From assembly GCA_024975835.1 (NCBI GenBank), contig GCA_024975835.1_4840.2: 20,653 nucleotides of DNA, one strand, 5' to 3'. Of the stretch, positions 1,018 to 13,458 are shown one piece after another (the stretch's first letter is position 1; the number at the start of each line of letters is the position of its first letter). Both the position numbers and the translations under genes were made by a program. Source of the stretch: a phage. Below the pieces are notes generated by a model, which saw only the letters and a list, made by a program, of their open reading frames with translations, made no database searches and was not told the DNA's origin.

Positions 1018-1177
1018 TTTGGATAAAGAATTGGTTTGGGAAATTGTGAAGGGTGTCTTAGTAATAATCGCGGTGGTTTTCATCTTGGGTGGGAACTTCT
1101 TCTATTGGTTATTCCGATCCGACCAGAAACGTCGCAAACGCAAGGAGAAAGAGAGAAAGGATCGATGGATGCGCTAA
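986..1177 (+). CDS. small membrane protein, one predicted TM helix and basic C-terminal tail; start uncertain
   Basis: Hydrophobic segment VLVIIAVVFILGGNFFYWLF followed by KRRKRKEKERK. The ATG at 986 overlaps the upstream gene by 32 nt; alternative in-frame starts TTG 1019 (GAGGT 5 nt upstream) or GTG 1043 are equally plausible. Confidence 0.35.
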   Translation: MTVDLKKTRYNLDKELVWEIVKGVLVIIAVVFILGGNFFYWLFRSDQKRRKRKEKERKDRWMR

Positions 1178-1209
1178 CTAAGGGATAACCCTATATCCCG
1201 AGGTGTGTC

Positions 1210-1659
1210 ATGTTCCTTACATCCTTTATTGACTGGTTGAACATCATTAACGGCCTGAGGATCCCTGTTGGGAACCTCGGGCTTTCTCGTTCTTCTATGC
1301 CGCAAATCGATGCCGACAAACAAGAAGATTTTCACAAATATCTTGAAGACAACGGTGTGTCCATAGATGCTGTGCAAGTGCCCATCAAAATGCTTCGTCT
1401 CACCCAGAACGAAATCAACAAGATGAAGGTCTGGAAGATCATGAAGAACATCAGAAATAAGAAACCTATGGGTCGAGTTTGGGTGTCTTCTGACAATTAC
1501 GTTGTTGACGGTTCTCACCGATTTGTCGCTGCGTTGAACATGGACGGCAAACAGCGCATGAAGGTCTACAAAGTTGATTTGCCAGCGATGGAATTTATTA
1601 AACTCGCTAAACAGTTTCAGGGTGTGCGATACAGAACGGTCAGCGACACCCGTTTCTGA
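1210..1659 (+). CDS. ParB/sulfiredoxin-like (ParB N-terminal nuclease-type) domain protein
   Basis: Motif VVDGSHRFVAA resembles the ParB/Srx-fold signature (DG-HR-xAA). GAGG lies 8 nt upstream of the ATG. Assignment is by motif only. Confidence 0.5.
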   Translation: MFLTSFIDWLNIINGLRIPVGNLGLSRSSMPQIDADKQEDFHKYLEDNGVSIDAVQVPIKMLRLTQNEINKMKVWKIMKNIRNKKPMGRVWVSSDNYVVDGSHRFVAALNMDGKQRMKVYKVDLPAMEFIKLAKQFQGVRYRTVSDTRF

Positions 1660-2772: not shown

Positions 2773-3657
2773 ATGAAGGAATACACTGTGATGCTCCTGA
2801 CCAAAACAATCGCTGCAGCGATTATCGAAAAGAATAAGGCTTTTGCCCCCAACGCAGCCAAAGTTATGTTGGTACACGAAGACGCTCGCGTGATCTTCGC
2901 CGAGAAGTTCGAGATGGGCGCGAAGTTCTGGTATGCCGACAACTTGCGTGAGAGCAAACTTCAGGGTATCATCCACAAACTGACTCTGGTCGCCAAGCGT
3001 AATGACCAGGGTGACTGGGTCGGCGTTTCTGACTTCAGTACGAAGATCACCCCAAAGGCTCCGCTTTCTCGTCAAGAGCGCATTCTGGAAGCCCAGGAAA
3101 AGCTGCGTGCGGCTCGGAGTACCCCAAAGGCGAAACCAGATGCAAGCCCTGTTATCAAGCCAGCGGTTGTTCCTAAGTCCAAATACCTCCCTCCCGTGAG
3201 TCAAAAGGCTGTGGAGCAATTGGTTGAGAAGCGCAAGGGTGACGTTGTGATGAAGTCTGACTCTTCAGTGGAGCCGTTCAAGCCGGATCCAGCAGAAGTA
3301 CAGGCGCTGGCAGAAAAGGTAAAGAATTCACAATTCATTTCCCTGCGTGAACTTGAACCGCCTACTCGCCGTCGTGTCGCCAACGAGCTGTTTGTGTCGT
3401 TCAGGTCGGATGGCAAGATCGTCCTGTGCAAAGCCCTGCGCGATGCAATCCCTTGGACAACTCTGAACATGATGGTCACTCGCGACTTCAAGCGTTTCGG
3501 TATCATGCAAGGCAAGGACTACAACGTCAACCAGAGCGGGACTTATGTTAATCGCGCCATGTGTGACAAACTGACCTTCCCAGAAGATACTGGAACGATC
3601 CGTGTCGTTCTGAACTGGGACGACAAGCTGAATATGTATGTTGGTGATTTCCAATAA
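2773..3657 (+). CDS. hypothetical protein (about 290 aa)
   Basis: Long ORF with a Lys/Pro-rich middle region. Start ambiguous between ATG 2773, GTG 2788 and ATG 2791; AAGGA at 2775-2779 favours one of the latter two. Confidence 0.55.
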   Translation: MKEYTVMLLTKTIAAAIIEKNKAFAPNAAKVMLVHEDARVIFAEKFEMGAKFWYADNLRESKLQGIIHKLTLVAKRNDQGDWVGVSDFSTKITPKAPLSRQERILEAQEKLRAARSTPKAKPDASPVIKPAVVPKSKYLPPVSQKAVEQLVEKRKGDVVMKSDSSVEPFKPDPAEVQALAEKVKNSQFISLRELEPPTRRRVANELFVSFRSDGKIVLCKALRDAIPWTTLNMMVTRDFKRFGIMQGKDYNVNQSGTYVNRAMCDKLTFPEDTGTIRVVLNWDDKLNMYVGDFQ

Positions 3658-3668
3658 TCAATAACCTC

Positions 3669-3700
3669 GGGTGGCTTATCATAAAGCTGCCCTTTCATTT
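3669..3700 (+). terminator. hairpin plus T-rich tail, candidate intrinsic terminator
   Basis: GGGTGGC-(10-nt loop)-GCTGCCC, a 7-bp stem with two G.U pairs, followed by TTTCATTT. Lies just after the stop at 3657. Confidence 0.35.
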
Positions 3701-3713
3701 GAGTGACTATATC

Positions 3714-4376
3714 ATGGAAAAACTTTATTCTATTATCGTCGGTCCTGATCCTGACGGATTATTCTTCGCCCCGTTGTCTTATATTGCCCACGCCCGTATC
3801 GGTAGCTATTACGCATATTGCACACGTGGCCACGACGGTTCCAATATCCTCCATTATAGCCGCCTGAACGATTTCCTGGAACTTCAACCAGAAGATGTTG
3901 TGCTGGCGCGTCGCGTGTTCATCGACTTCAACGCGATGCACAACAACGAAATCGACGCTCGCTATCATGCCATGCGTTCTATGGAAGGGGGAGACTGCAT
4001 TTATCGTATAGACCATTTTAGTGAGTTTACCGAATGTATTGATTGGTTTATCTCTGATAAAGTGATGGGTGAAAGAATCGTCACAACTCCGTGGGCACAT
4101 GCGGAACAACTTCGTGTGTCTACCGATGCGTACAAAGAAGTCGACAATCTGTGCAACAAGTTCCGCATCTCGGTGACCTGTAATCAAGACCTGGGCGAAG
4201 AGATACAATGGACAGCTGAGTCTCCTCATTTCAGTGACCTGGTGATGACGGCCGAAACCCGTTCCCGTGCTGTTATCCAGTTAGTACTCTGGGCGTTCTA
4301 CCAGCGCACCCCGTTCTCGTACATGGGACAGAAAGAGATTGATGAACTCCTGAAGTCTCACGCGGTGGAGGTGTAA
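3714..4376 (+). CDS. hypothetical protein (about 220 aa)
   Basis: ATG at 3714 inside track ORF 3699..4376, in GACTATATC-ATG context. No recognisable catalytic motifs. Confidence 0.6.
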   Translation: MEKLYSIIVGPDPDGLFFAPLSYIAHARIGSYYAYCTRGHDGSNILHYSRLNDFLELQPEDVVLARRVFIDFNAMHNNEIDARYHAMRSMEGGDCIYRIDHFSEFTECIDWFISDKVMGERIVTTPWAHAEQLRVSTDAYKEVDNLCNKFRISVTCNQDLGEEIQWTAESPHFSDLVMTAETRSRAVIQLVLWAFYQRTPFSYMGQKEIDELLKSHAVEV

Positions 4377-4377
4377 T

Positions 4378-4656
4378 ATGGCTGGTGTATGGTGTGATGT
4401 CTTGCTGGTTCGTTACAGCGTAAATGGGTGTGTCCAAGTGCGTTCCGCCTTCTATCCAGTACCGTTCTCTTCCGGTGGCCTGACGGTTCAGCGAGTTCTC
4501 AATATTGAGGCAGAACTGAACAAAAAGTCTTTTGGTGTACAAGTCCTGGGGTACGATCTTCTGAATGAAATGATGGTTGAAGAAGACAAAGTTGAGACTG
4601 TCATTGGTCGTCAGGAGATGGAATCGTTAATCTCCAAATCGGAGGTCAAATCATGA
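4378..4656 (+). CDS. hypothetical protein (92 aa)
   Basis: ORF starting 2 nt after the upstream stop (TAATATG). No motifs recognised. Confidence 0.5.
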   Translation: MAGVWCDVLLVRYSVNGCVQVRSAFYPVPFSSGGLTVQRVLNIEAELNKKSFGVQVLGYDLLNEMMVEEDKVETVIGRQEMESLISKSEVKS

Positions 4657-4901
4657 GTCCCAACATGGCAATAATCTGGGTTGGTGAATCGTCAATGCGT
4701 TGTCCTCACAAGACGATCACCTTCTTGGACGATGAGCGCCTGGCCGAACAACGGGTTGAAGTCCGCGAAATGCAGGTTTCTTCAAAGGCGGTGAACGTTC
4801 CTGTGACTAATATTCAGACTTTTAAGCCTTGCGTCAGAGTGATTTGTGAACGCTGTGGATGTTATGGCACGATGACGACTGAAGACGTGGCGAAAGGCTA
4901 A
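4653..4901 (+). CDS. hypothetical protein with Cys-rich C-terminus (82 aa)
   Basis: ATGA overlap with the upstream gene. C-terminal CxxxxICERCGC cluster could bind a metal. Function unknown. Confidence 0.5.
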   Translation: MSPNMAIIWVGESSMRCPHKTITFLDDERLAEQRVEVREMQVSSKAVNVPVTNIQTFKPCVRVICERCGCYGTMTTEDVAKG

Positions 4902-4994
4902 TAATTTCGCTTTATTCAATATGTTTTGTTAGGTAAGATGTAGTCCTCTTGTAGTGAACATGAAAGTAAACATTAACCCAACGGAGAAATCCAG

Positions 4995-5273
4995 ATGAAT
5001 CGTACTGAATTTGTTGCCCACATTGCTTCGACCCAGAACATCACCAAAGGCGAAGCGGAGAAAGTAGTGGCATCCTTTATCGACGGTGTAAAAACTGCAG
5101 TTGCTGCAGGCGCATCTGTACAGCTGGTCGGCTTCGGTGCGTTCGAAGTGAAACACCAAGAAGCGCGTGAAGGTCGCAACCCTCTGAACGGCCAGACCAT
5201 TCAGATCGCGGCGAAAAACGTTGTGAAATTCAAAGTGGGCGAAGGTCTGAAGAACGCTGCCAACGGCAAGTAA
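4995..5273 (+). CDS. HU/IHF-family histone-like DNA-binding protein
   Basis: Protein is 92 aa, typical HU length. Contains the HU-family arm signature VQLVGFGAFEVKHQEAREGRNPLNGQTIQIAAKNVVKFKVG (compare bacterial HU GFGxF...R.GRNP...I.A...F..G). GGAG lies about 9 nt upstream. Confidence 0.85.
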   Translation: MNRTEFVAHIASTQNITKGEAEKVVASFIDGVKTAVAAGASVQLVGFGAFEVKHQEAREGRNPLNGQTIQIAAKNVVKFKVGEGLKNAANGK

Positions 5274-5322
5274 TTCTATCTGACGCGCGGCCAGGCTCTG
5301 CAATCAGGGCATGGCAAAAGAG

Positions 5323-5355
5323 AAAGCCGGAGTACAATGCTCCGGCTTTTTCGTT
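5323..5355 (+). terminator. rho-independent terminator
   Basis: AAAGCCGGAG-(7-nt loop)-CTCCGGCTTT followed by TTTTTCGTTCTT, directly downstream of the HU-like gene. Confidence 0.7.
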
Positions 5356-5401
5356 CTTGGGGATCGGGTAAACTATAGGCGAATCCCATAGGAGGAAGAA
5401 A

Positions 5402-7120
5402 GTGACAGCATTCAACCAATATACTAAGGCGCTTGACGGCGTCGGACCAGTCAGCATAGACCGCATCAAGTCTCTTGCCACTGAGTTCTTCCCGTATGAC
5501 ACCGCCAACCCCGGCCAGATGGAATGCATCGTTGAAGCCATCGATGCCCTTGTGAATAAGAAATTCAAACACGTGATCATCGAGGCTCCGACTGGTGTAG
5601 GTAAATCCCTCATCGGCACTACCATCCATAACGTGCTTCGCCATTTGGTTCTTGAGCACAACCCGTATGGTCAGTTCCGCACGTCTATCACGACGCCGAC
5701 CAAAGGTTTACAGGATCAGTATGCAGCAGAGAAAGCCGTGGCGATAGACATCCTGAAGGGCAAGAAGAATTACCGTTGCCACATCAGTCCCGACCTATAC
5801 TACAACGCCATTCAGTGCCGTATGGCATGCCGTGATGGCCAGTGTAGTAAGAATCGTTGCCCATATGTTCAGGCGCGTCGACAGTGGACCGACGTCTCCT
5901 CCCTGCGCTGCACCAACGCCGCCATGATGGTGGAGATGTGCACGACGATCTGTATGAAGCCGGAAAACCGTGCCGATATGCTGATCCTTGACGAGTGTCA
6001 TAAAATGCCCTCTACGCTCCTAGAGCATACTATCATGGAATACAACATAAAGGCTGTGGAAGGGCTGCTTACGATCCCAGAGGGGGTGCCTATCGTGGAG
6101 ACCATCAAGGATATCATCATCCGCACAGAGAACTATGAATTGGGCAACCTGTATTCCCTGTCTGGTGAGATGCATGCGATATTTGATGAACTGCACGGCA
6201 AGGTTGAAGCCCTGTTGGAAACTCTTGAGGAACTGGTAGAGGACGAGCGCCTGACTGAAGCCCAGGTGATGAAGCTGTCTGATATTATTGATACTCTTCA
6301 CAACCTCAGCGACTACTGTGGTATCATGGGGCAGACCAACGCCAGCACTTTCATCGTACAGGAGAAGGACAAGGGTATGATTCAGTTCAAGCCTGTCATC
6401 GCCTCTGATGTATCCCAGTTCGGCCTGTTCCGCAAGGGTGACTACCACGTCCACATGTCGGCTACCATTTGTGGGATTGACTCGTACGCCCGGTCACTGG
6501 GTATCCGCGAGGGTGAGTACCACAAGATACAGATCGGCAACCCTATCCCGATTGAGAACCGGAAAGTCAACTACATGCCCATCATGAAGATGACAGCGAA
6601 CATGGGTGACTATGAGATGAAGAAGCTGGCCGAATACGTTGATGAAATCATCGCATTCCACCCTGGGCAGTCTGGTATCATTCACACAGTAAGTTATGAC
6701 CGCGCCCTGGCTATACAGAAGTTCAGTAAGTACCGGAATATGATTCACGTTCCTCGTACTCGTAAGGCTCTGATGGACATCATGGAACACGCGTTCAGGA
6801 CGAAGACGCCTTGTGTCATCGCCAGTCCGGCCATGGAAGAGGGGTATGACTTCAAAGGCGATTACAGTCGATTTCAGATCTTGATCAAGGTGCCATACGA
6901 TTACCTTGGTGATCCTCTGGTGGCCCACGTCAACAGTGTGGACCCATCGGCGTACTTCAGGATGGCGGTACTGCGTATCGTTCAGATGTGTGGGCGTTCG
7001 GTCAGGGGCGTGAATGACTGGGCTGCGACGTACATCCTTGATTCTTCTTTTGAATCACTGATGATGCGCAACCCAGAGTTCTTCCCCGCTTGGTTCACTG
7101 ATGCCGTGTTTGAGGTTTAG
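5402..7120 (+). CDS. SF2 DExH-box helicase with Cys-rich insert between motifs I and II (DinG/XPD-like architecture)
   Basis: GTG start with AGGAGG 6 nt upstream. Walker A EAPTGVGKS, motif II LILDECH, motif III SAT (HMSATICG), motif VI QMCGRSVRG. Five Cys within about 30 residues (RCH...QCRMACRDGQCSKNRCP) lie between motifs I and II, where XPD/DinG helicases carry their Fe-S domain. Confidence 0.8.
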   Translation: MTAFNQYTKALDGVGPVSIDRIKSLATEFFPYDTANPGQMECIVEAIDALVNKKFKHVIIEAPTGVGKSLIGTTIHNVLRHLVLEHNPYGQFRTSITTPTKGLQDQYAAEKAVAIDILKGKKNYRCHISPDLYYNAIQCRMACRDGQCSKNRCPYVQARRQWTDVSSLRCTNAAMMVEMCTTICMKPENRADMLILDECHKMPSTLLEHTIMEYNIKAVEGLLTIPEGVPIVETIKDIIIRTENYELGNLYSLSGEMHAIFDELHGKVEALLETLEELVEDERLTEAQVMKLSDIIDTLHNLSDYCGIMGQTNASTFIVQEKDKGMIQFKPVIASDVSQFGLFRKGDYHVHMSATICGIDSYARSLGIREGEYHKIQIGNPIPIENRKVNYMPIMKMTANMGDYEMKKLAEYVDEIIAFHPGQSGIIHTVSYDRALAIQKFSKYRNMIHVPRTRKALMDIMEHAFRTKTPCVIASPAMEEGYDFKGDYSRFQILIKVPYDYLGDPLVAHVNSVDPSAYFRMAVLRIVQMCGRSVRGVNDWAATYILDSSFESLMMRNPEFFPAWFTDAVFEV

Positions 7121-7884
7121 TAACCCGCAACGAAGGACAGATGGCACTTGACATTCGGTTCCAACGACGTCACAGAAACCGTCATATTGTCCGTATCTTG
7201 GCTGAAGTCAATGGTGGCGAGAGGTTTGGTCTGAATATGGTTGTAAACACTGTAGATCAGATCCTCGCCACGATACCCTACCTTCCCGTCGGTGTCTTGC
7301 CAATGACCCAGTGTCTCATCGTAGACATGTACTCTGAACTCGATCATATGGAAGAGTGCCTTGGGGATGTCCTTGAGCACGCTGGTGCCAACCACGGGAA
7401 TCTCTATGCTGGAATCATTGGAGTTCCCTTCATAGACCGAAGCCCATGCAAAGGTAGGATCACCCCCAGCAACAGGGGTTCGCTTCCAGTATTGGAATTC
7501 TGGGTTGCCTGAAGCGTTCTTCTGAAGTAGAATGACCTCACCACCTTTGAAGTTCGAAGTATCGATGTCGCCTCGCTGAAGTTCATCTGCTGGAGATCCA
7601 ATAAATTTCCAGCCTTCGCGATCCAATAAAGACTTATAATAGTCGGTGAACACGTTGCTGTCTTCTGCATCGTTGATGGCATCTTTGAGACCTTGGCCTG
7701 TCACCATCTCGTTGAGCTTCAACCACATGTTCTTGACAGCAGACGCTGCTGCGACTTGTCCAGCAGTCCCACCTGCAGCATAATCATAGATGATATCTTC
7801 TGACTTGATAGCATCATAGATAGAGAGGAGCAATTGCTCAATCTGCGGGGCGGTGAGACTGAAACGATATGCGCGGGGTGCCAT
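7117..7884 (-). CDS. hypothetical late protein (about 255 aa), only convincing minus-strand gene in the window
   Basis: Start assigned to ATG 7884 (MAPRAYRF...) within track ORF 7117..8043, because GAGGAA lies about 8 nt upstream and a TATAAATA box lies about 36 nt upstream on the minus strand. 3' end converges on, and overlaps, the helicase stop. No catalytic motif recognised. Confidence 0.6.
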   Translation of the reverse strand: MAPRAYRFSLTAPQIEQLLLSIYDAIKSEDIIYDYAAGGTAGQVAAASAVKNMWLKLNEMVTGQGLKDAINDAEDSNVFTDYYKSLLDREGWKFIGSPADELQRGDIDTSNFKGGEVILLQKNASGNPEFQYWKRTPVAGGDPTFAWASVYEGNSNDSSIEIPVVGTSVLKDIPKALFHMIEFRVHVYDETLGHWQDTDGKVGYRGEDLIYSVYNHIQTKPLATIDFSQDTDNMTVSVTSLEPNVKCHLSFVAGY

Positions 7885-7919
7885 AGTTTCATTCCTCTTT
7901 CTATAAAACCAGTTTGGGA

Positions 7920-7927
7920 TATTTATA
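7920..7927 (-). promoter_or_regulatory. T4-type late promoter box TATAAATA on the minus strand
   Basis: Plus-strand TATTTATA at 7920-7927 is the reverse complement of TATAAATA, positioned upstream of the minus-strand ATG at 7884. A gp55-like late sigma factor is encoded in this same window. Confidence 0.5.
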
Positions 7928-7929
7928 TC

Positions 7930-8457
7930 ATGATAGAAATTTATTCTGACGGGGGTTCTAACCCGAAGACCAACCAGGCCGCAGGTTGGGCATTTGTCAT
8001 CAGGCCAATAACGGGTATGCAATGGAAGGTGTTCTTCGGCCATCTACCTCCCCCGTCCACTAACAATATCGCCGAGTTGTTGGGCGTGACCAACGCATTG
8101 AAGCTGCTGTGGGCATTCTCAGGAAAGGGTGAGCGCAGAATACCAAAGGCAACAATTTGGTCTGACAGCCAATATGCCATCAAGAGTGTCACCGAATGGC
8201 GAACGAAGTGGGAGTATCAGGGTTTCCCAGACAAGAACGTTGAACTCATCAAAGATCTGTTCAGAATCTATGATCTCGTTTGTTCAATTTGTGATGTTGA
8301 ACTAAAATGGGTTAAGGGTCATGCGGGGCACGAAGGCAACGAACTTGCCGATGACTGGGCCACAGCAGCCAAAAACGACAGCAACTTCCTGATTGAGAAT
8401 GACAAGATCTCAGTGAAGAAGGTTGTTGGATCTTTTGATGAATTTATCGGTATCTGA
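7930..8457 (+). CDS. rnhA: ribonuclease H, type 1 (RnhA-like)
   Basis: Start ATG 7930 (MIEIYSDGG...) within track ORF 7834..8457. Catalytic signatures IYSDGG, NNIAEL, SDSQY and WVKGHAGHEGNELADDWA correspond to the D-E-D-H-D active-site pattern of E. coli RNase HI. Confidence 0.85.
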   Translation: MIEIYSDGGSNPKTNQAAGWAFVIRPITGMQWKVFFGHLPPPSTNNIAELLGVTNALKLLWAFSGKGERRIPKATIWSDSQYAIKSVTEWRTKWEYQGFPDKNVELIKDLFRIYDLVCSICDVELKWVKGHAGHEGNELADDWATAAKNDSNFLIENDKISVKKVVGSFDEFIGI

Positions 8458-8468
8458 GGGCTTTCATA

Positions 8469-9260
8469 ATGGGAATGAACTTCGTGGACAGAGGGGAGAA
8501 TGTCGTCAAATATTTCACGGACGAAGACAACGAGCGTGTCATCAGTATCCTTCGTGATTGGATCCCTGCTCGTAAGAAGGCTCTGGCTGAAGGCACCAGG
8601 CTTCCAAAGATCCCCAACTATGTTGCTCTACAGGTCCAGCGCATCATCACCAAGATGAGTACCCGCTACAACTATCGCGACTATCCCTTCCGTGAAGACA
8701 TGGTCTCTGAAGCAATAGTCAACATCCTGCGCTACCTCCACACCTTTGACGTCGAACACATTGGAAAGAAAGGGAAGATCAACTTCTTCTCTTGGGTGAC
8801 CATGTGTGCTGATCGCTCATTTGCTCGTAAACTGAACATCGAAGAAGAGCACACGTACATTAAATTGCGCTCATTTGAAGAGGCGGGTGGGTTCGCAGGC
8901 CTGGCAGACGATCCCGACTTCCAACAAGAGATCTTTGTTGATGCTACAGGAATTGGCATGGACTTCCGTGAGCGTATCGGTAACTTTGAGAACAAAAAGG
9001 ACGCTCAAAGACAGAAGGAGCGAGAGAAGGTGGAGGCAGCTCGTCTCGCAGAATCGAATAAAAAGATTGCGAAAGGCATACTTCAATACATGGCGCAGGC
9101 TAAGAATACGGTAACAGCGCAGGCCGAAGACAATTCAGATCAGGACTTTGGCAAAACCCAATTCAATCTGGAAGATGATATCTGTGCGATGGAACCAGAT
9201 TGGGAAGCCCTCAAACAAAGATTAGAAGAACGGGAGAAAAAGAATAATGGCGATTGCTAA
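8469..9260 (+). CDS. gp55-like late-transcription sigma factor with extended charged C-terminal tail
   Basis: Pattern RYNYRDY...VNILRYLHTFD...NFFSWVTMCADRSFARKL parallels T4 gp55 as I recall it (RFNFSGY...LHNFD...YITQACFNAFVQRI). Protein is about 80 aa longer than T4 gp55, with a Lys/Glu-rich C-terminal region. Confidence 0.75.
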   Translation: MGMNFVDRGENVVKYFTDEDNERVISILRDWIPARKKALAEGTRLPKIPNYVALQVQRIITKMSTRYNYRDYPFREDMVSEAIVNILRYLHTFDVEHIGKKGKINFFSWVTMCADRSFARKLNIEEEHTYIKLRSFEEAGGFAGLADDPDFQQEIFVDATGIGMDFRERIGNFENKKDAQRQKEREKVEAARLAESNKKIAKGILQYMAQAKNTVTAQAEDNSDQDFGKTQFNLEDDICAMEPDWEALKQRLEEREKKNNGDC

Positions 9261-10362
9261 AATCGGCGATCTGCATATCGGGAGCCGTAATGGTTCCCGA
9301 TACGTTCGCGACTTCATCAAGAACTATCTCATCAATTATTTCATCCCTGAACTTGTCGACTCTGATATCAAAGAGGTCTGGCAGTTCGGTGATACGTTTG
9401 ATGTCCGCAAATTCATGTACGGGCGTGACAAGGACTGGTTGAAAGATGAGCTGACTCCGGCGCTGAAAGCTGCTGGGATCAAGTGGAATGGTATTGTTGG
9501 TAACCACGACATCACCCTGGAAGAGTCTAACCGCATCAACTGGCCATCCTACCTGAACGAACTCGACCCAGATGTGTACTGCTATTATAGCGAACCGACC
9601 GAAGTGATGATCGAGGGTGTCAAGACTCTGCTCCTACCGTGGATCAACAAGGAGAACTATGATGCGTCTATTAAGGCGATACAAGATACAGACGCCGAGT
9701 ACTGTTTTGCGCATCTGGAGCTGGCAGGGTTCAAAATGTACCAGTCCTCTACTTGTGATCACGGTCAGATCGACGTTGCGTTGCTTTCCAAGTTTACCAG
9801 GGTCGACACGGGACATTTCCATACCCGTTCGATGGAAGGTAACATTCAGTATCTTGGGACTCCGTATCACCTGAACTGGGAAGACTACAAAGATGGCACC
9901 AACCGTGGCTTCTATGTGGACGACATGCGCGGTGGTGAGGTCTTTATCCCGAACGCCGAGAATCAGACGTTGTTCCGCTATGTGGAATATGATTACACCA
10001 AGTTGTCCTCAGACGATGAGGGTAACTGGATCAACCCGGAATGGCTGAACACAGGCTTGGGTATTGAAGGGCAAATCGTTAAGGTTATTGTACAGAATCG
10101 CGACAATGCTAAGCATTATGAAAAGTTCTGTGATGCCATGAAGCGCTGTAAGTGCATTGACTACAACTTCATCGACCGGACTATTACCGTAGCGGCTGAG
10201 AAGGTTGAGGTCACCGAAGAGATGGTGGCAACCGACGCAGTGGAAGTCCTAAAGAAGGATATCCGCGCCGGGAACAACATCCAGCGCCCTGAAAACGTCT
10301 GCAAGCTGGCAGAGCACTTCTACAACGCTGCCCAACAACGTCTGAATACACTGGATGCATAA
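9247..10362 (+). CDS. gp47-like Mre11/SbcD-family recombination nuclease (calcineurin-like phosphoesterase)
   Basis: Phosphoesterase motifs GDLHIG, GDTFD, GNHD and GHFH, with N-terminal similarity to T4 gp47. Overlaps the gp55-like gene by 14 nt. Confidence 0.85.
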   Translation: MAIAKIGDLHIGSRNGSRYVRDFIKNYLINYFIPELVDSDIKEVWQFGDTFDVRKFMYGRDKDWLKDELTPALKAAGIKWNGIVGNHDITLEESNRINWPSYLNELDPDVYCYYSEPTEVMIEGVKTLLLPWINKENYDASIKAIQDTDAEYCFAHLELAGFKMYQSSTCDHGQIDVALLSKFTRVDTGHFHTRSMEGNIQYLGTPYHLNWEDYKDGTNRGFYVDDMRGGEVFIPNAENQTLFRYVEYDYTKLSSDDEGNWINPEWLNTGLGIEGQIVKVIVQNRDNAKHYEKFCDAMKRCKCIDYNFIDRTITVAAEKVEVTEEMVATDAVEVLKKDIRAGNNIQRPENVCKLAEHFYNAAQQRLNTLDA

Positions 10363-12700
10363 CATGACTCAAAGTACAGATATCCTGGCCAAATTTGGCA
10401 ATCTTTTGAAGGAAGCTGACACCCCGGTAGAGGTGGAAGTCCCATTTGAAGTGCGTGATAACGTTACGCACAAACTAACTTTCCGCAAAGGTCGTGCCAA
10501 AAACTTCCGTTCCATCGGCAATCAGTTCATGGAGATTGATTATCAGCGCAACCCAGCCACCCTTGTCACGTCTGATGACAACGGCGCGGGTAAATCCACG
10601 ATGTTGGTATGGCTGCTGTTCTTCGTACTGTACAACACCACGTACAGTAAGAAGGAGAAGAAGGCAGGCCTGGTTAACTCACAAAGCCGCAAGGAATGTG
10701 TGGGTGAGGTAGAGTTTGCCTGTCGTGGTAGTGAATGGAAAGTTCGCCGGGGTATCAAGCCCGACTTTGTTGAAGTCTACCAGATGGTGGACGGTAAGTG
10801 GTTGAAGATCGATAACGAAGCAGCCAAAGCCGACATGAACAAGTACATCGTGAATCTCATCGGTGTAGACCAGAAGATGTTTGAGAACTCTCTGGTGCTG
10901 GGCAAAGAGAAGTTCATTCCGTTCACGGAGATGTACACAGCCGACCGCCGCGCCATGGTGGAGACTATCTGGGACTTGGGCTTCTTCAGCCTGATGAACG
11001 AAGATGTCAAGGCATCCATCAAGAAAGCGAACGAAAAGCTGGACGCGATCGCGAATGAATGTGCGTTGAAGGTTGTTGACCACACCAACAAGAAGACGCA
11101 GCTACAGCAGATAGAGCGGTCCAATGCCCTTATCCAACAGCAGTCGGCCGATATCCTTGTGCAGCAACAGGAAGCCCTGACTTCCCTAGACGCTGACATC
11201 GCCGCCCAGAATGAAGAGCGCACCCGCCTCACTGCGGTTGAGTTCGAAGCCGCCCAGGAAATGAAGATAGTAGAAAGCCGCCTGCATGATGAATCCATGG
11301 TGGAGATCGATGCTGTCAAGAAAGACTTTGATGCCAAGATCCAGGCGGTGAAGGATGCCGCTCAGGAAAAGGCCGATGATTATGAGCGTATCGAAGTGTC
11401 TATTGCGGAGCATGATCTTCAGGTCTTGCGTGACCGCGCCTTTACAGTGGCCGAACGCAAGAACACCCTGCTCACCGAGCGCAACACAAACCTGGACGCC
11501 CTGAACGCTGCTATCCAGCGCCGTCAGCAGGGTGAGAACTTCCGTATCAAGTTCCAGACCGAAATGGATGGACATCAGTCGGCCATCAAGCGCTTCCACG
11601 ACATGGGGACTTGCCCAACATGTACCCAACTGGTGTCAGACGATACCAAGGCGCGTATTGAAAGCGAGTACAATCCTCAGATCCAGGAACTGCAGTCGAA
11701 GTTAGATCAACTGGACAAAGTTACCGCCGATATCAATGTCCTGATCGATGATCACAAGGCTCAGGACGATAAGTTGGTTGCTGACATTGCTGTGTTGGAT
11801 GCTGAACTGGATGCAATGCGCAAGCAGGCCGACGAAATCGTTGACAACATCAAGCAGCTGCGCCGTGATATTCAAGGTTTTCATGATGCCGCCACGATTG
11901 AGTGTAATTCGCTGAACCGTGAATGCCAACAGAAGATCCTTGACATCCGTAAGGCACTGAACGTTCGTTTTGAAGACATCACTGCGTCACTACAACAAAC
12001 TCGAGAGAATGCCGTCAGCGGGATTAAAGCCGTCGATGATAAGATCGCCGAGCTGAAAGCCCGTCGTGCTCCTCTCGTGGCGTCTATTGCCGATCTGGAG
12101 CGTAAACTGGCTGTACAGCCAACACCTACCACCGACCTGGAGAACTCTATCGCTGCGTTGGAAGGTGAACTGGAGTCTCTGTATGAACTCCGTGAAGATG
12201 CAGATGAGGAACTCCAGGACTTACAGCACCTGCTGTTCTTCTTGAAAGATGACCAGACCAAGGCGCGTATCATCGCCCTGTACTTGCCATTCCTCAATAG
12301 CAAGATCAACGAGTATCTTGAAGCCCTCAACATGTTCTTGGACATCGTTGTTGACGATACCTTTGAGATCACCATGAGCGCAGCAGGCCGCAAGGGACAG
12401 AGCATCTTCTCCCTGTCTACTGGCCAACGCAGTCGCCTGAACCTGGCTGTGACATTAGCTCTGCGCGATGTGGCTAACCTCAAGGCGTCTGTACAATGTA
12501 ACCTGTTCGTGCTGGACGAGATCCTTGAGAACATGAGCGAGCGCGGGGTGCAGGAATCGGTTGAGATGTTGAAGCATAAGTTCGGCGGGAACAACCTGTT
12601 TGTTATTAGCCAGCGCGAACAGGAGTTCCAGGAATACTTCCAACACAACATTCGCTACGGCCTGCGAAACGGCCTGACTGAAGTTATCAAGAAGGATTGA
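10355..12700 (+). CDS. gp46-like Rad50/SbcC-family ATPase
   Basis: Walker A DDNGAGKSTM, long coiled-coil middle, ABC signature LSTGQRSRLNLA, Walker B LFVLDE. Start is ATG 10355 or 10364 adjoining the gp47 stop; there is an N-terminal extension of about 35 aa relative to my recollection of T4 gp46. Confidence 0.85.
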   Translation: MHNMTQSTDILAKFGNLLKEADTPVEVEVPFEVRDNVTHKLTFRKGRAKNFRSIGNQFMEIDYQRNPATLVTSDDNGAGKSTMLVWLLFFVLYNTTYSKKEKKAGLVNSQSRKECVGEVEFACRGSEWKVRRGIKPDFVEVYQMVDGKWLKIDNEAAKADMNKYIVNLIGVDQKMFENSLVLGKEKFIPFTEMYTADRRAMVETIWDLGFFSLMNEDVKASIKKANEKLDAIANECALKVVDHTNKKTQLQQIERSNALIQQQSADILVQQQEALTSLDADIAAQNEERTRLTAVEFEAAQEMKIVESRLHDESMVEIDAVKKDFDAKIQAVKDAAQEKADDYERIEVSIAEHDLQVLRDRAFTVAERKNTLLTERNTNLDALNAAIQRRQQGENFRIKFQTEMDGHQSAIKRFHDMGTCPTCTQLVSDDTKARIESEYNPQIQELQSKLDQLDKVTADINVLIDDHKAQDDKLVADIAVLDAELDAMRKQADEIVDNIKQLRRDIQGFHDAATIECNSLNRECQQKILDIRKALNVRFEDITASLQQTRENAVSGIKAVDDKIAELKARRAPLVASIADLERKLAVQPTPTTDLENSIAALEGELESLYELREDADEELQDLQHLLFFLKDDQTKARIIALYLPFLNSKINEYLEALNMFLDIVVDDTFEITMSAAGRKGQSIFSLSTGQRSRLNLAVTLALRDVANLKASVQCNLFVLDEILENMSERGVQESVEMLKHKFGGNNLFVISQREQEFQEYFQHNIRYGLRNGLTEVIKKD

Positions 12701-12702
12701 TC

Positions 12703-12867
12703 ATGAACTACGAACAAATTAAACTCGCAATCCTGGTCTTTGCATGCATCATTGACATCATTGCATTTTCTCGTGAAGTCGAAAGGAAAAACTACCTGAA
12801 AGCACTGGGGTATCTCGGGTTCTCTGTCTGGTTCTGTTATCTACTTGCAGGTCAAATCCTGAAATGA
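12703..12867 (+). CDS. small membrane protein with two predicted TM segments (54 aa); absent from the ORF track because it is under 60 aa
   Basis: ATG 12703 lies 2 nt after the gp46 stop and the stop overlaps the next ATG (ATGA). Hydrophobic stretches IKLAILVFACIIDIIAF and LGYLGFSVWFCYLLAG read from my own translation. Confidence 0.4.
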   Translation: MNYEQIKLAILVFACIIDIIAFSREVERKNYLKALGYLGFSVWFCYLLAGQILK

Positions 12868-13193
12868 AAGTCGTCCACTTCAAGAAGGAGCCATATGACG
12901 TCTACATTGGTCGGCCTGGTAAATGGGGGAACCCGTTTGAGGTCAAAGACCATGGACGAGGCGTCTGTATCGAACTGTTTGAGGACGACCTGTATGTGCG
13001 CCTGATTGAAGGGGATATCACTGAGGATGAACTCCTTGATCTTGACGGGAAGGTATTGGGGTGCTGGTGTAAGCCGCGCCCCTGTCACGGAGATGTTTAC
13101 GTCAAAGTCATTGGTCGTATTAAACTATTCCGCAAGCTGGGTAAATCCTTTACTGAACACCTGAGACAAACATATGTCAGAATCAAAAGATGA
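12864..13193 (+). CDS. conserved protein with GNPF and CWCxPxxCHG motifs (I believe the DUF4326 family)
   Basis: Motifs WGNPF and CWCKPRPCHGDV in a roughly 110-aa protein. Family assignment is from memory of the motif pair and is not database-verified. Confidence 0.55.
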   Translation: MKVVHFKKEPYDVYIGRPGKWGNPFEVKDHGRGVCIELFEDDLYVRLIEGDITEDELLDLDGKVLGCWCKPRPCHGDVYVKVIGRIKLFRKLGKSFTEHLRQTYVRIKR

Positions 13194-13458
13194 TATCCAA
13201 GACTCCTGTGACATTGCGGTTGAAATCTGGAACCGTCGGAACCCGCATTACCAGGTGACCGTCACGCCAAATCGCTACCTTGAGCAGGGCGGTTTGATTG
13301 TTGTTGATGCTGTACTTGCGTTCAACAAGTACACCGACATGCAAATCCTGGACGGCAACTTCACTGTCGCGACCAAGACGGCTTGGGATGACCCGATGGA
13401 GTTTGTCTATGGCTGGCTGGAATGCATCGAGGAATCCTACCACCTCATCTATGAATGA
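13174..13458 (+). CDS. hypothetical protein (94 aa)
   Basis: ORF overlapping the upstream gene end by 20 nt. No motifs recognised. Confidence 0.5.
   Translation: MSESKDDIQDSCDIAVEIWNRRNPHYQVTVTPNRYLEQGGLIVVDAVLAFNKYTDMQILDGNFTVATKTAWDDPMEFVYGWLECIEESYHLIYE

Follow-up and report, generated by a model that had tools for sequence, protein, structure and literature searches.

The window, by which we mean the whole stretch of 20,653 nucleotides that was analyzed, carries near its start an open reading frame (ORF) encoding a 149-aa protein of 17.3 kDa and pI 9.9, here termed the ParB/Srx protein after its predicted ParB/sulfiredoxin fold. The first 6 kb of the window were 97% identical to Escherichia phage vB_EcoM-RPN242 and 91–95% identical to Agtrevirus phages, an identity from which the window can be assigned to a lytic phage of the Ackermannviridae (Aglimvirinae). 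The gene, its parts, and its surroundings are as follows.

311–733, signal-peptide protein gene, flanking the ParB/Srx gene
986–1177, transmembrane (TM) protein gene, flanking the ParB/Srx gene
~1180–1850, recombinant patch carrying the ParB/Srx gene (sliding-window identity, per-ORF identity, and blastn segments)
1200–1205, plus strand, Shine-Dalgarno-like GAGGTG, with 4 nt between it and the ATG (read from the sequence)
1210–1659 including the stop codon, plus strand, ParB/Srx-fold gene, 149 aa, ATG start (ORF list, PHROG 2859, homologues, and dN/dS)
1210–1359, plus strand, family-specific N-terminal extension, aa 1–50 (helix 2–14, strand 20–25, loop, helix 35–47)
1288–1305, plus strand, R27-S-S-M30-P31-Q32 motif (conservation across the clade)
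1360–1614, plus strand, predicted core ParB/Srx domain, aa ~51–135
1399–1413, plus strand, L64-T-Q66-N-E68 motif (conservation counts; profile match to SerK)
1501–1533, plus strand, VVDGSHRFVAA, aa 98–108 (D-G-S-H-R at the N-terminus of helix 102–111)
1739–2425, signal-peptide protein gene, flanking the ParB/Srx gene
2422–2751, lipobox Rz-like spanin gene, flanking the ParB/Srx gene
4378–4656, gene for a DUF7425 protein (full-length Pfam match, E 3e-47), another conserved phage protein whose function is unknown, within the block of the ParB/Srx gene

The ORF at 1210–1659 matched 276 phage records at E<1e-60 (tblastn), its dN/dS was 0.04–0.12 against six orthologues, and peptides have been recovered by mass spectrometry from orthologues 84% and 97% identical to its product; on the strength of these matches, this selection, and these peptides, it is a real and strongly conserved phage gene. 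The protein has 40 close homologues. An antisense ORF (1174–1518, minus strand, 114 aa, GTG start) overlaps the gene, but both the selection and the peptides fit the plus-strand frame, which leaves the antisense ORF without support as a coding sequence.

The gene is part of a long run of co-directional genes, a block that extends between the clamp and clamp-loader genes on one side and those for helicase, RNase H, gp55, and gp47/46 on the other. The preliminary description had placed it among early genes and between envelope-targeted ones, and the latter part held, with signal-peptide, TM, and lipobox spanin products identified on its flanks. The envelope genes are missing around a metagenomic homologue of 41% identity that occupies the same replication module, so this envelope-gene neighborhood appears to be incidental. 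Regarding the timing, the gene may be expressed early, judging from synteny with replication genes and from the early promoter that the LIMEstone1 annotators predicted at the head of the replication block; no Ackermannviridae transcriptome was found in the literature. Directly upstream of the gene, we detected no convincing sigma-70, T4-late (TATAAATA), or Ag3-type promoter (motifs sought: CTAAATAcCcc and TTCAAT-N14-TATAAT), and no late-promoter motif was found near it. Across distant homologues, the neighborhoods differ and revealed no conserved partner; the solo ones among them lie beside unrelated genes (a baseplate hub gene, thymidine kinase, ADP-ribosylglycohydrolase). In Stenotrophomonas phage IME-SM1, the solo homologue (4995–5396) and the start of a T4 gp26-like baseplate hub gene share 13 nt, an overlap that links the ParB/Srx gene there to a structural gene. 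On a metagenomic contig (1796–4279), a 48%-identical homologue stands beside genes for a HAD_SAK_2 phosphatase-like protein, an Rv2179c-like exonuclease, and, on the opposite strand, an ADP-ribosylglycohydrolase.

The gene was further found on a patch of DNA with a distinct history. This patch (~670 bp) comprises the ParB-like ORF and ~200 nt of the next gene, and its nucleotide identity to Kuttervirus Sajous1 was 91–100% over 1161–1558 and 88–94% over 1559–1853, compared with 68–85% to Agtrevirus vB_CECAV_050, save for one 96% bin (intergenic, 1654–1753). The flanks of the patch were 92–99% identical to vB_CECAV_050 and 57–90% identical to Sajous1. We interpret ~1180–1850 as a gene-sized allele exchange of Kuttervirus origin inside otherwise Agtrevirus-like DNA. 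Elsewhere in the alignment with vB_CECAV_050, a ~500-nt indel was observed at ~310–360 of the window; the vB_CECAV_050 genome has an extra gene (3356–3859), labeled 'RNA polymerase ADP-ribosylase' and absent from the window, between the homologues of window ORFs 57–296 and 311–733.

From the VVDGSHRFVAA string alone, a ParB N-terminal-type domain had been read, with structure prediction named as a check. The AlphaFold2 model that we obtained from 21 homologues (pLDDT 84, pTM 0.79) gave the ParB/Srx fold: the best 46 Foldseek matches in the PDB all belonged to this superfamily, the matches spanned about 80–96 residues (aa ~51–135), and ParB, Noc, and KorB were included. The initial reading of the domain was thus upheld by both the predicted fold and the conservation of the motif residues, and we regard it as very probable that the protein adopts the ParB/Srx fold. 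The assignment is correct yet already public in UniProt and GenBank, and UniRef names the close homologues 'ParB/Sulfiredoxin domain-containing protein'. No counterpart of the extension (aa 1–50) was found in solved ParB/Srx structures. Sequence searches with the 149-aa protein gave no significant match in Pfam, NCBIfam, or PADLOC, and searches of PDB sequences with the single protein or with a 21-sequence profile returned only noise (e.g., von Willebrand factor and a Z-DNA-binding protein). The protein matched phrog_2859, of unknown function, at E 1e-44, with three ParB-like PHROGs matched marginally.

We addressed the conservation of individual residues over 185 domain copies of the wider family (109 solo and 76 fused). 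In the extension, R27 was present in 175 of the copies, and M30, P31, and Q32 were near-invariant (174–180/185; P31 in 180 and Q32 in 174). Within the core, all copies but one (184/185) have Q66 of the T-Q-x-E motif, and position 68 is Glu in 150 and mainly Asp in the remainder. D95 is near-invariant; D100, G101, and H103 are invariant; and R104 is found in 174/185. The D-G-S-H-R sequence occupies the position of the phosphate-binding motif of the superfamily, at the N-terminus of helix 102–111, and the conserved Arg that the superfamily has at the start of the second core helix (G-x-x-R or G-[HC]-H-R) is present in D100-G-S-H-R104. Because of the invariance of D100, G101, and H103, the high frequency of R104, and the predicted fold, VVDGSHRFVAA can be taken as no chance match. 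Position 102 differs between the two kinds of copies: it is His in 74 of the 76 fused copies and Ser in 61 of the 109 solo copies, including the protein studied here. Since Ser replaces the first His of DGHHR in this solo subclade, its catalysis may differ from that of the fused copies or may have been lost.

When 1.84 billion representative proteins were searched with a profile, 4,871 clusters were recovered at E<=1e-3, of which 2,275 reached E<=1e-10, the clusters (about 4,900) being representatives at 50% identity. No Pfam or NCBIfam model covers this clade, which by its conserved positions can be recognized from an N-terminal R-x-x-M-P-Q extension together with the T-Q-x-E and D-G-[H/S]-H-R motifs, and the 149-aa protein is best described as a solo member of this large, unmodeled, and uncharacterized ParB/Srx clade with the R-x-x-M-P-Q extension. 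Many of the matches were internal domains, in proteins as long as 2,359 aa. The fusion partners that Pfam identified in 69 long homologues were Zeta_toxin (7 proteins), AAA_33 kinases (5), CTP_transf_like (4), PolyA_pol, RelA_SpoT, and PT-HINT (2 each), and Portal_Mu, ADPrib_exo_Tox, ART-PolyVal, Acb1, GNAT, and DUF3990 (1 each); BFVD gave the same picture of fusions. Polyvalent proteins, which are predicted to be injected into the host, combine ART, kinase, NTase, RelA/SpoT, MuF/portal, and peptidase modules (Iyer et al. 2017, PMC5512222). The observed fusion partners match this repertoire; the clade domain is thus a common module of polyvalent proteins, and the 149-aa protein itself is a solo version of it.

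Some further observations concern the fused homologues. The domain of the clade is harbored by a 3,164-aa ORF (3749–13243) of Ralstonia phage Claudette, a giant polyvalent-type protein that carries no annotation; a CysH/PAPS-reductase-like gene lies two genes upstream of it, with a gene for a 509-aa hypothetical protein in between. Two domain copies, tandem or separated, were observed in six long homologues (P0051, P0054, P0058, P0069, P0074, and P0117), and in some of these proteins the N-terminal R-x-x-M-P-Q element is missing from the second copy. The orthologue in Salmonella phage vB_CECAV_050 (4767–5216) is labeled 'cytidyltransferase'; we rejected this label for the 149-aa protein, which has no CTP_transf_like domain, and the label looks like an annotation transfer from homologues fused to CTP_transf_like.

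A known family with a shared lifestyle is the DdrB-like ParB domain (PF18763). It occurs in polyvalent proteins and as solo phage genes unaccompanied by ParA, and it has been predicted to be virion-delivered and to work by NTP sensing or degradation, not in partition (PMC5512222). Both this family and our clade are ParB/Srx domains that are solo or embedded in polyvalent proteins, without ParA, and incorporated into virions, and the predicted role of the DdrB-like domain as an NTP-dependent early effector is the one that we propose for the clade. Nevertheless, membership in the DdrB-like family was rejected. PF18763, which matches P1 DdrB residues 36–167 at E 2e-39, did not match the 149-aa protein even at E<=10, gave weak matches (E>=0.014) in only 3 of 40 diverse clade members, and was not one of the 25 families found most often in the 69 long homologues. 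An hhalign comparison of the clade with DdrB-like ParB gave a probability of 0.1%, and an HMM of 206 clade sequences scored −0.8 bits on DdrB, which has a QPRDR-type N-terminal motif where this clade has T-Q-x-E. By sequence alignment only, no conserved Tyr was seen in the C-terminal part of the clade, the sole near-invariant Tyr being Y97, before DGSHR. The PF18763, hhalign, and HMM comparisons indicate that the clade, while having the lifestyle of DdrB-like ParB, is to be regarded as a family of its own, for which there is no curated model.

ParBc_2 (PF08857, 'putative ParB-like nuclease'; Atu1540, PDB 2hwj), itself functionally uncharacterized, was the nearest Pfam family by weak matches, which were obtained for 24 of the 40 members (best E 1e-4), but the individually shown relatives scored 20.8–22.6 bits, below the gathering threshold of 23.6 bits, and the 149-aa protein had no match; the clade differs from ParBc_2 by its own N-terminal R-x-x-M-P-Q extension. 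The best PDB sequence match of the clade profile was the free serine kinase SerK, at an insignificant E of 0.026, in an alignment that sets the clade motifs against PH(E/Q)Q and DGHHRW of SerK. Q66 there aligns with the catalytic Glu30 of SerK, so that this clade has Gln where the kinase has its catalytic Glu, and the top-scoring entry was the SerK E30Q mutant (5x0j), with Q on Q. SerK (PDB 5x0b) and SbnI (PDB 5ujd) are proteins of ~240–250 aa whose C-terminal half is missing from the 149-aa protein, which ends after the core. Sulfiredoxin (PDB 6ky4, 1yzs, and 3cyi) lacks the N-terminal extension of this clade and, unlike sulfiredoxin, the clade has no link to peroxiredoxin. Finally, the canonical CTP switches ParB, Noc, and KorB share the fold of their N-terminal domain with the 149-aa protein, whereas their HTH, dimerization domain, GERRxR box, and ParA context are missing from it, and for a protein that has no DNA-binding domain parS repeats would be moot.

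The orthologues of the protein have been detected in virions, and this detection is already public. The LIMEstone1 orthologue (84% identical; HE600015, 7879–8328) is labeled 'unknown structural protein; confirmed structural protein' in GenBank and corresponds to the 17.31-kDa entry in Table 2 of PMC3296691, for which 5 unique peptides gave a coverage of 35.57%. The numbering of LIMEstone1 is off by one between the two sources: the 17.31-kDa protein is ORF102 in PMC3296691 and the 149-aa CDS is ORF101 in GenBank, where ORF102 has 80 aa only. The Sajous1 orthologue, gp192 (97% identical), gave 11 spectra from CsCl-purified virions; accordingly, several Kuttervirus records label the orthologue 'putative structural protein'. 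The proteomes of two further Ackermannviridae, phiD3 and EspM4VN, from excised major gel bands only, are uninformative on the ParB/Srx protein. The same virion lists also include nonstructural proteins, namely RegB (31 spectra) and SSB (5) in Sajous1 and ligase, clamp loader, and PhoH in LIMEstone1. Because of these proteins and its basic pI, the 149-aa protein could, as a DNA-associated protein, be passively carried over with DNA. A position in the replication/recombination block, together with the early promoter predicted for that block in LIMEstone1 and no late-promoter motif near the gene, is likewise unusual for a packaged protein. On balance, we consider that the protein is probably genuinely virion-borne.

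Taken together, we proposed that the 149-aa protein is a virion-carried, nucleotide-dependent ParB/Srx enzyme with a role in host takeover or counter-defense when the DNA enters or shortly afterward, a reading to which we assign a probability of about 0.5. In the ParB/Srx core, the T-Q-x-E and D-G-S-H-R motifs line the predicted phosphate pocket, where the protein would bind a nucleoside triphosphate and then hydrolyze it or transfer its phosphate; the chances that the protein is a nucleotide-dependent enzyme are roughly even. It would travel in the particle, enter the cell with the DNA, and take effect there during entry or immediately after it, working for host takeover or against host defense in the manner of the same domain when embedded in polyvalent proteins.

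The alternative that survives best is that the protein is an intracellular accessory of replication or recombination, i.e., a nonspecific DNA-binding or nicking ParB-like nuclease of early or middle expression that shows up in virion preparations only by sticking to packaged or contaminating DNA. The place of the gene in the clamp-loader ... helicase–RNase H–gp55–gp47/46 module, conserved even in the 41%-identical homologue, fits this alternative, as do the early promoter predicted upstream of the block in LIMEstone1, the pI of 9.9, the nonstructural proteins in the same proteomes, and the weak matches to ParBc_2 with its nuclease name. However, the coverage in LIMEstone1 (35.6%, 5 peptides) is similar to that of bona fide structural proteins and far above that of the flagged contaminants (<5%), and the detection comes from two independent studies in two genera. 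In addition, the domain of the clade is embedded with Mu-portal/MuF and other virion-delivered modules, and the motifs by themselves do not allow nuclease activity to be predicted. We therefore regard a purely intracellular accessory role as possible but rather unlikely.

A more specific proposal is a virion-delivered counter-defense enzyme whose pocket consumes, phosphorylates, or sequesters a nucleotide of host immunity, or a protein that poisons the host ParB-fold defense NTPases (GmrS/DUF262, BrxU, SspE, and DndB-type) that attack hypermodified phage DNA. In this specific form the proposal is speculative and seems improbable; if it were true, arms-race selection would lie behind the gene-sized exchange of alleles that Kuttervirus and Agtrevirus have undergone. 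Even less credit can be given to a phosphotransferase of the thymidine hypermodification of Ackermannviridae, in which a ParB/Srx-fold kinase resembling SerK, SbnI, or sulfiredoxin would act on 5-hydroxymethyl-dU DNA or its precursor. Members of the clade occur in many phages unrelated to one another and in polyvalent proteins, the gene is not beside the PLP-enzyme/polymerase/kinase cluster listed for Sajous1, and a conserved partner gene is lacking. Furthermore, the position of the SerK catalytic Glu is Gln, and the protein has Ser at position 102 (Ser or His in this clade), which we align with the catalytic Cys in the G-G-C-H-R motif of sulfiredoxin. The weakest alternative, a ParB of partition or segregation or a CTP-switch DNA clamp of the ParB, Noc, and KorB kind, has in its favor the fold that it shares with those structures and is already effectively refuted, since the 149 aa hold no HTH or C-terminal dimerization domain, DGSHR stands in place of the GERRxR box, ParA is not nearby, the phage family is lytic, and tblastn found no plasmid homologues. 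The preliminary description had judged a partition role unlikely on the ground that no partner partition ATPase was present, and both statements agree with our results: no ParA-like gene is annotated in the 38 kb around the 98%-identical orthologue of phage RPN242, and the protein, for which Pfam gave no HTH or ParBc match, consists of a single domain with an N-terminal extension. It has no sequence-specific DNA-binding domain and is almost certainly not a partition protein.

Four points are new here: a very large unmodeled ParB/Srx clade, distinct from DdrB-like ParB and defined by the R-x-x-M-P-Q extension; the place of this clade as a hub module of polyvalent proteins; the Ser that replaces the first His of DGHHR in the solo subclade; and the location of the gene on a recombinant patch of ~670 bp that came from Kuttervirus. 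ParB/Srx domains act as CTP switches, as kinases, and as NTPases in defense systems, and to our knowledge the phage-borne solo versions have not been studied. Ackermannviridae such as Vi01, CBA120, LIMEstone, and Ag3 serve in biocontrol and therapy. Their version of the clade is a protein of 17 kDa, small enough to be tractable and assigned to the particle by two proteomes; knowing its ligand and target would give a function to thousands of phage proteins. Such work would also test the prediction that injected ParB-like modules act by NTP sensing or degradation (Iyer et al. 2017, PMC5512222).
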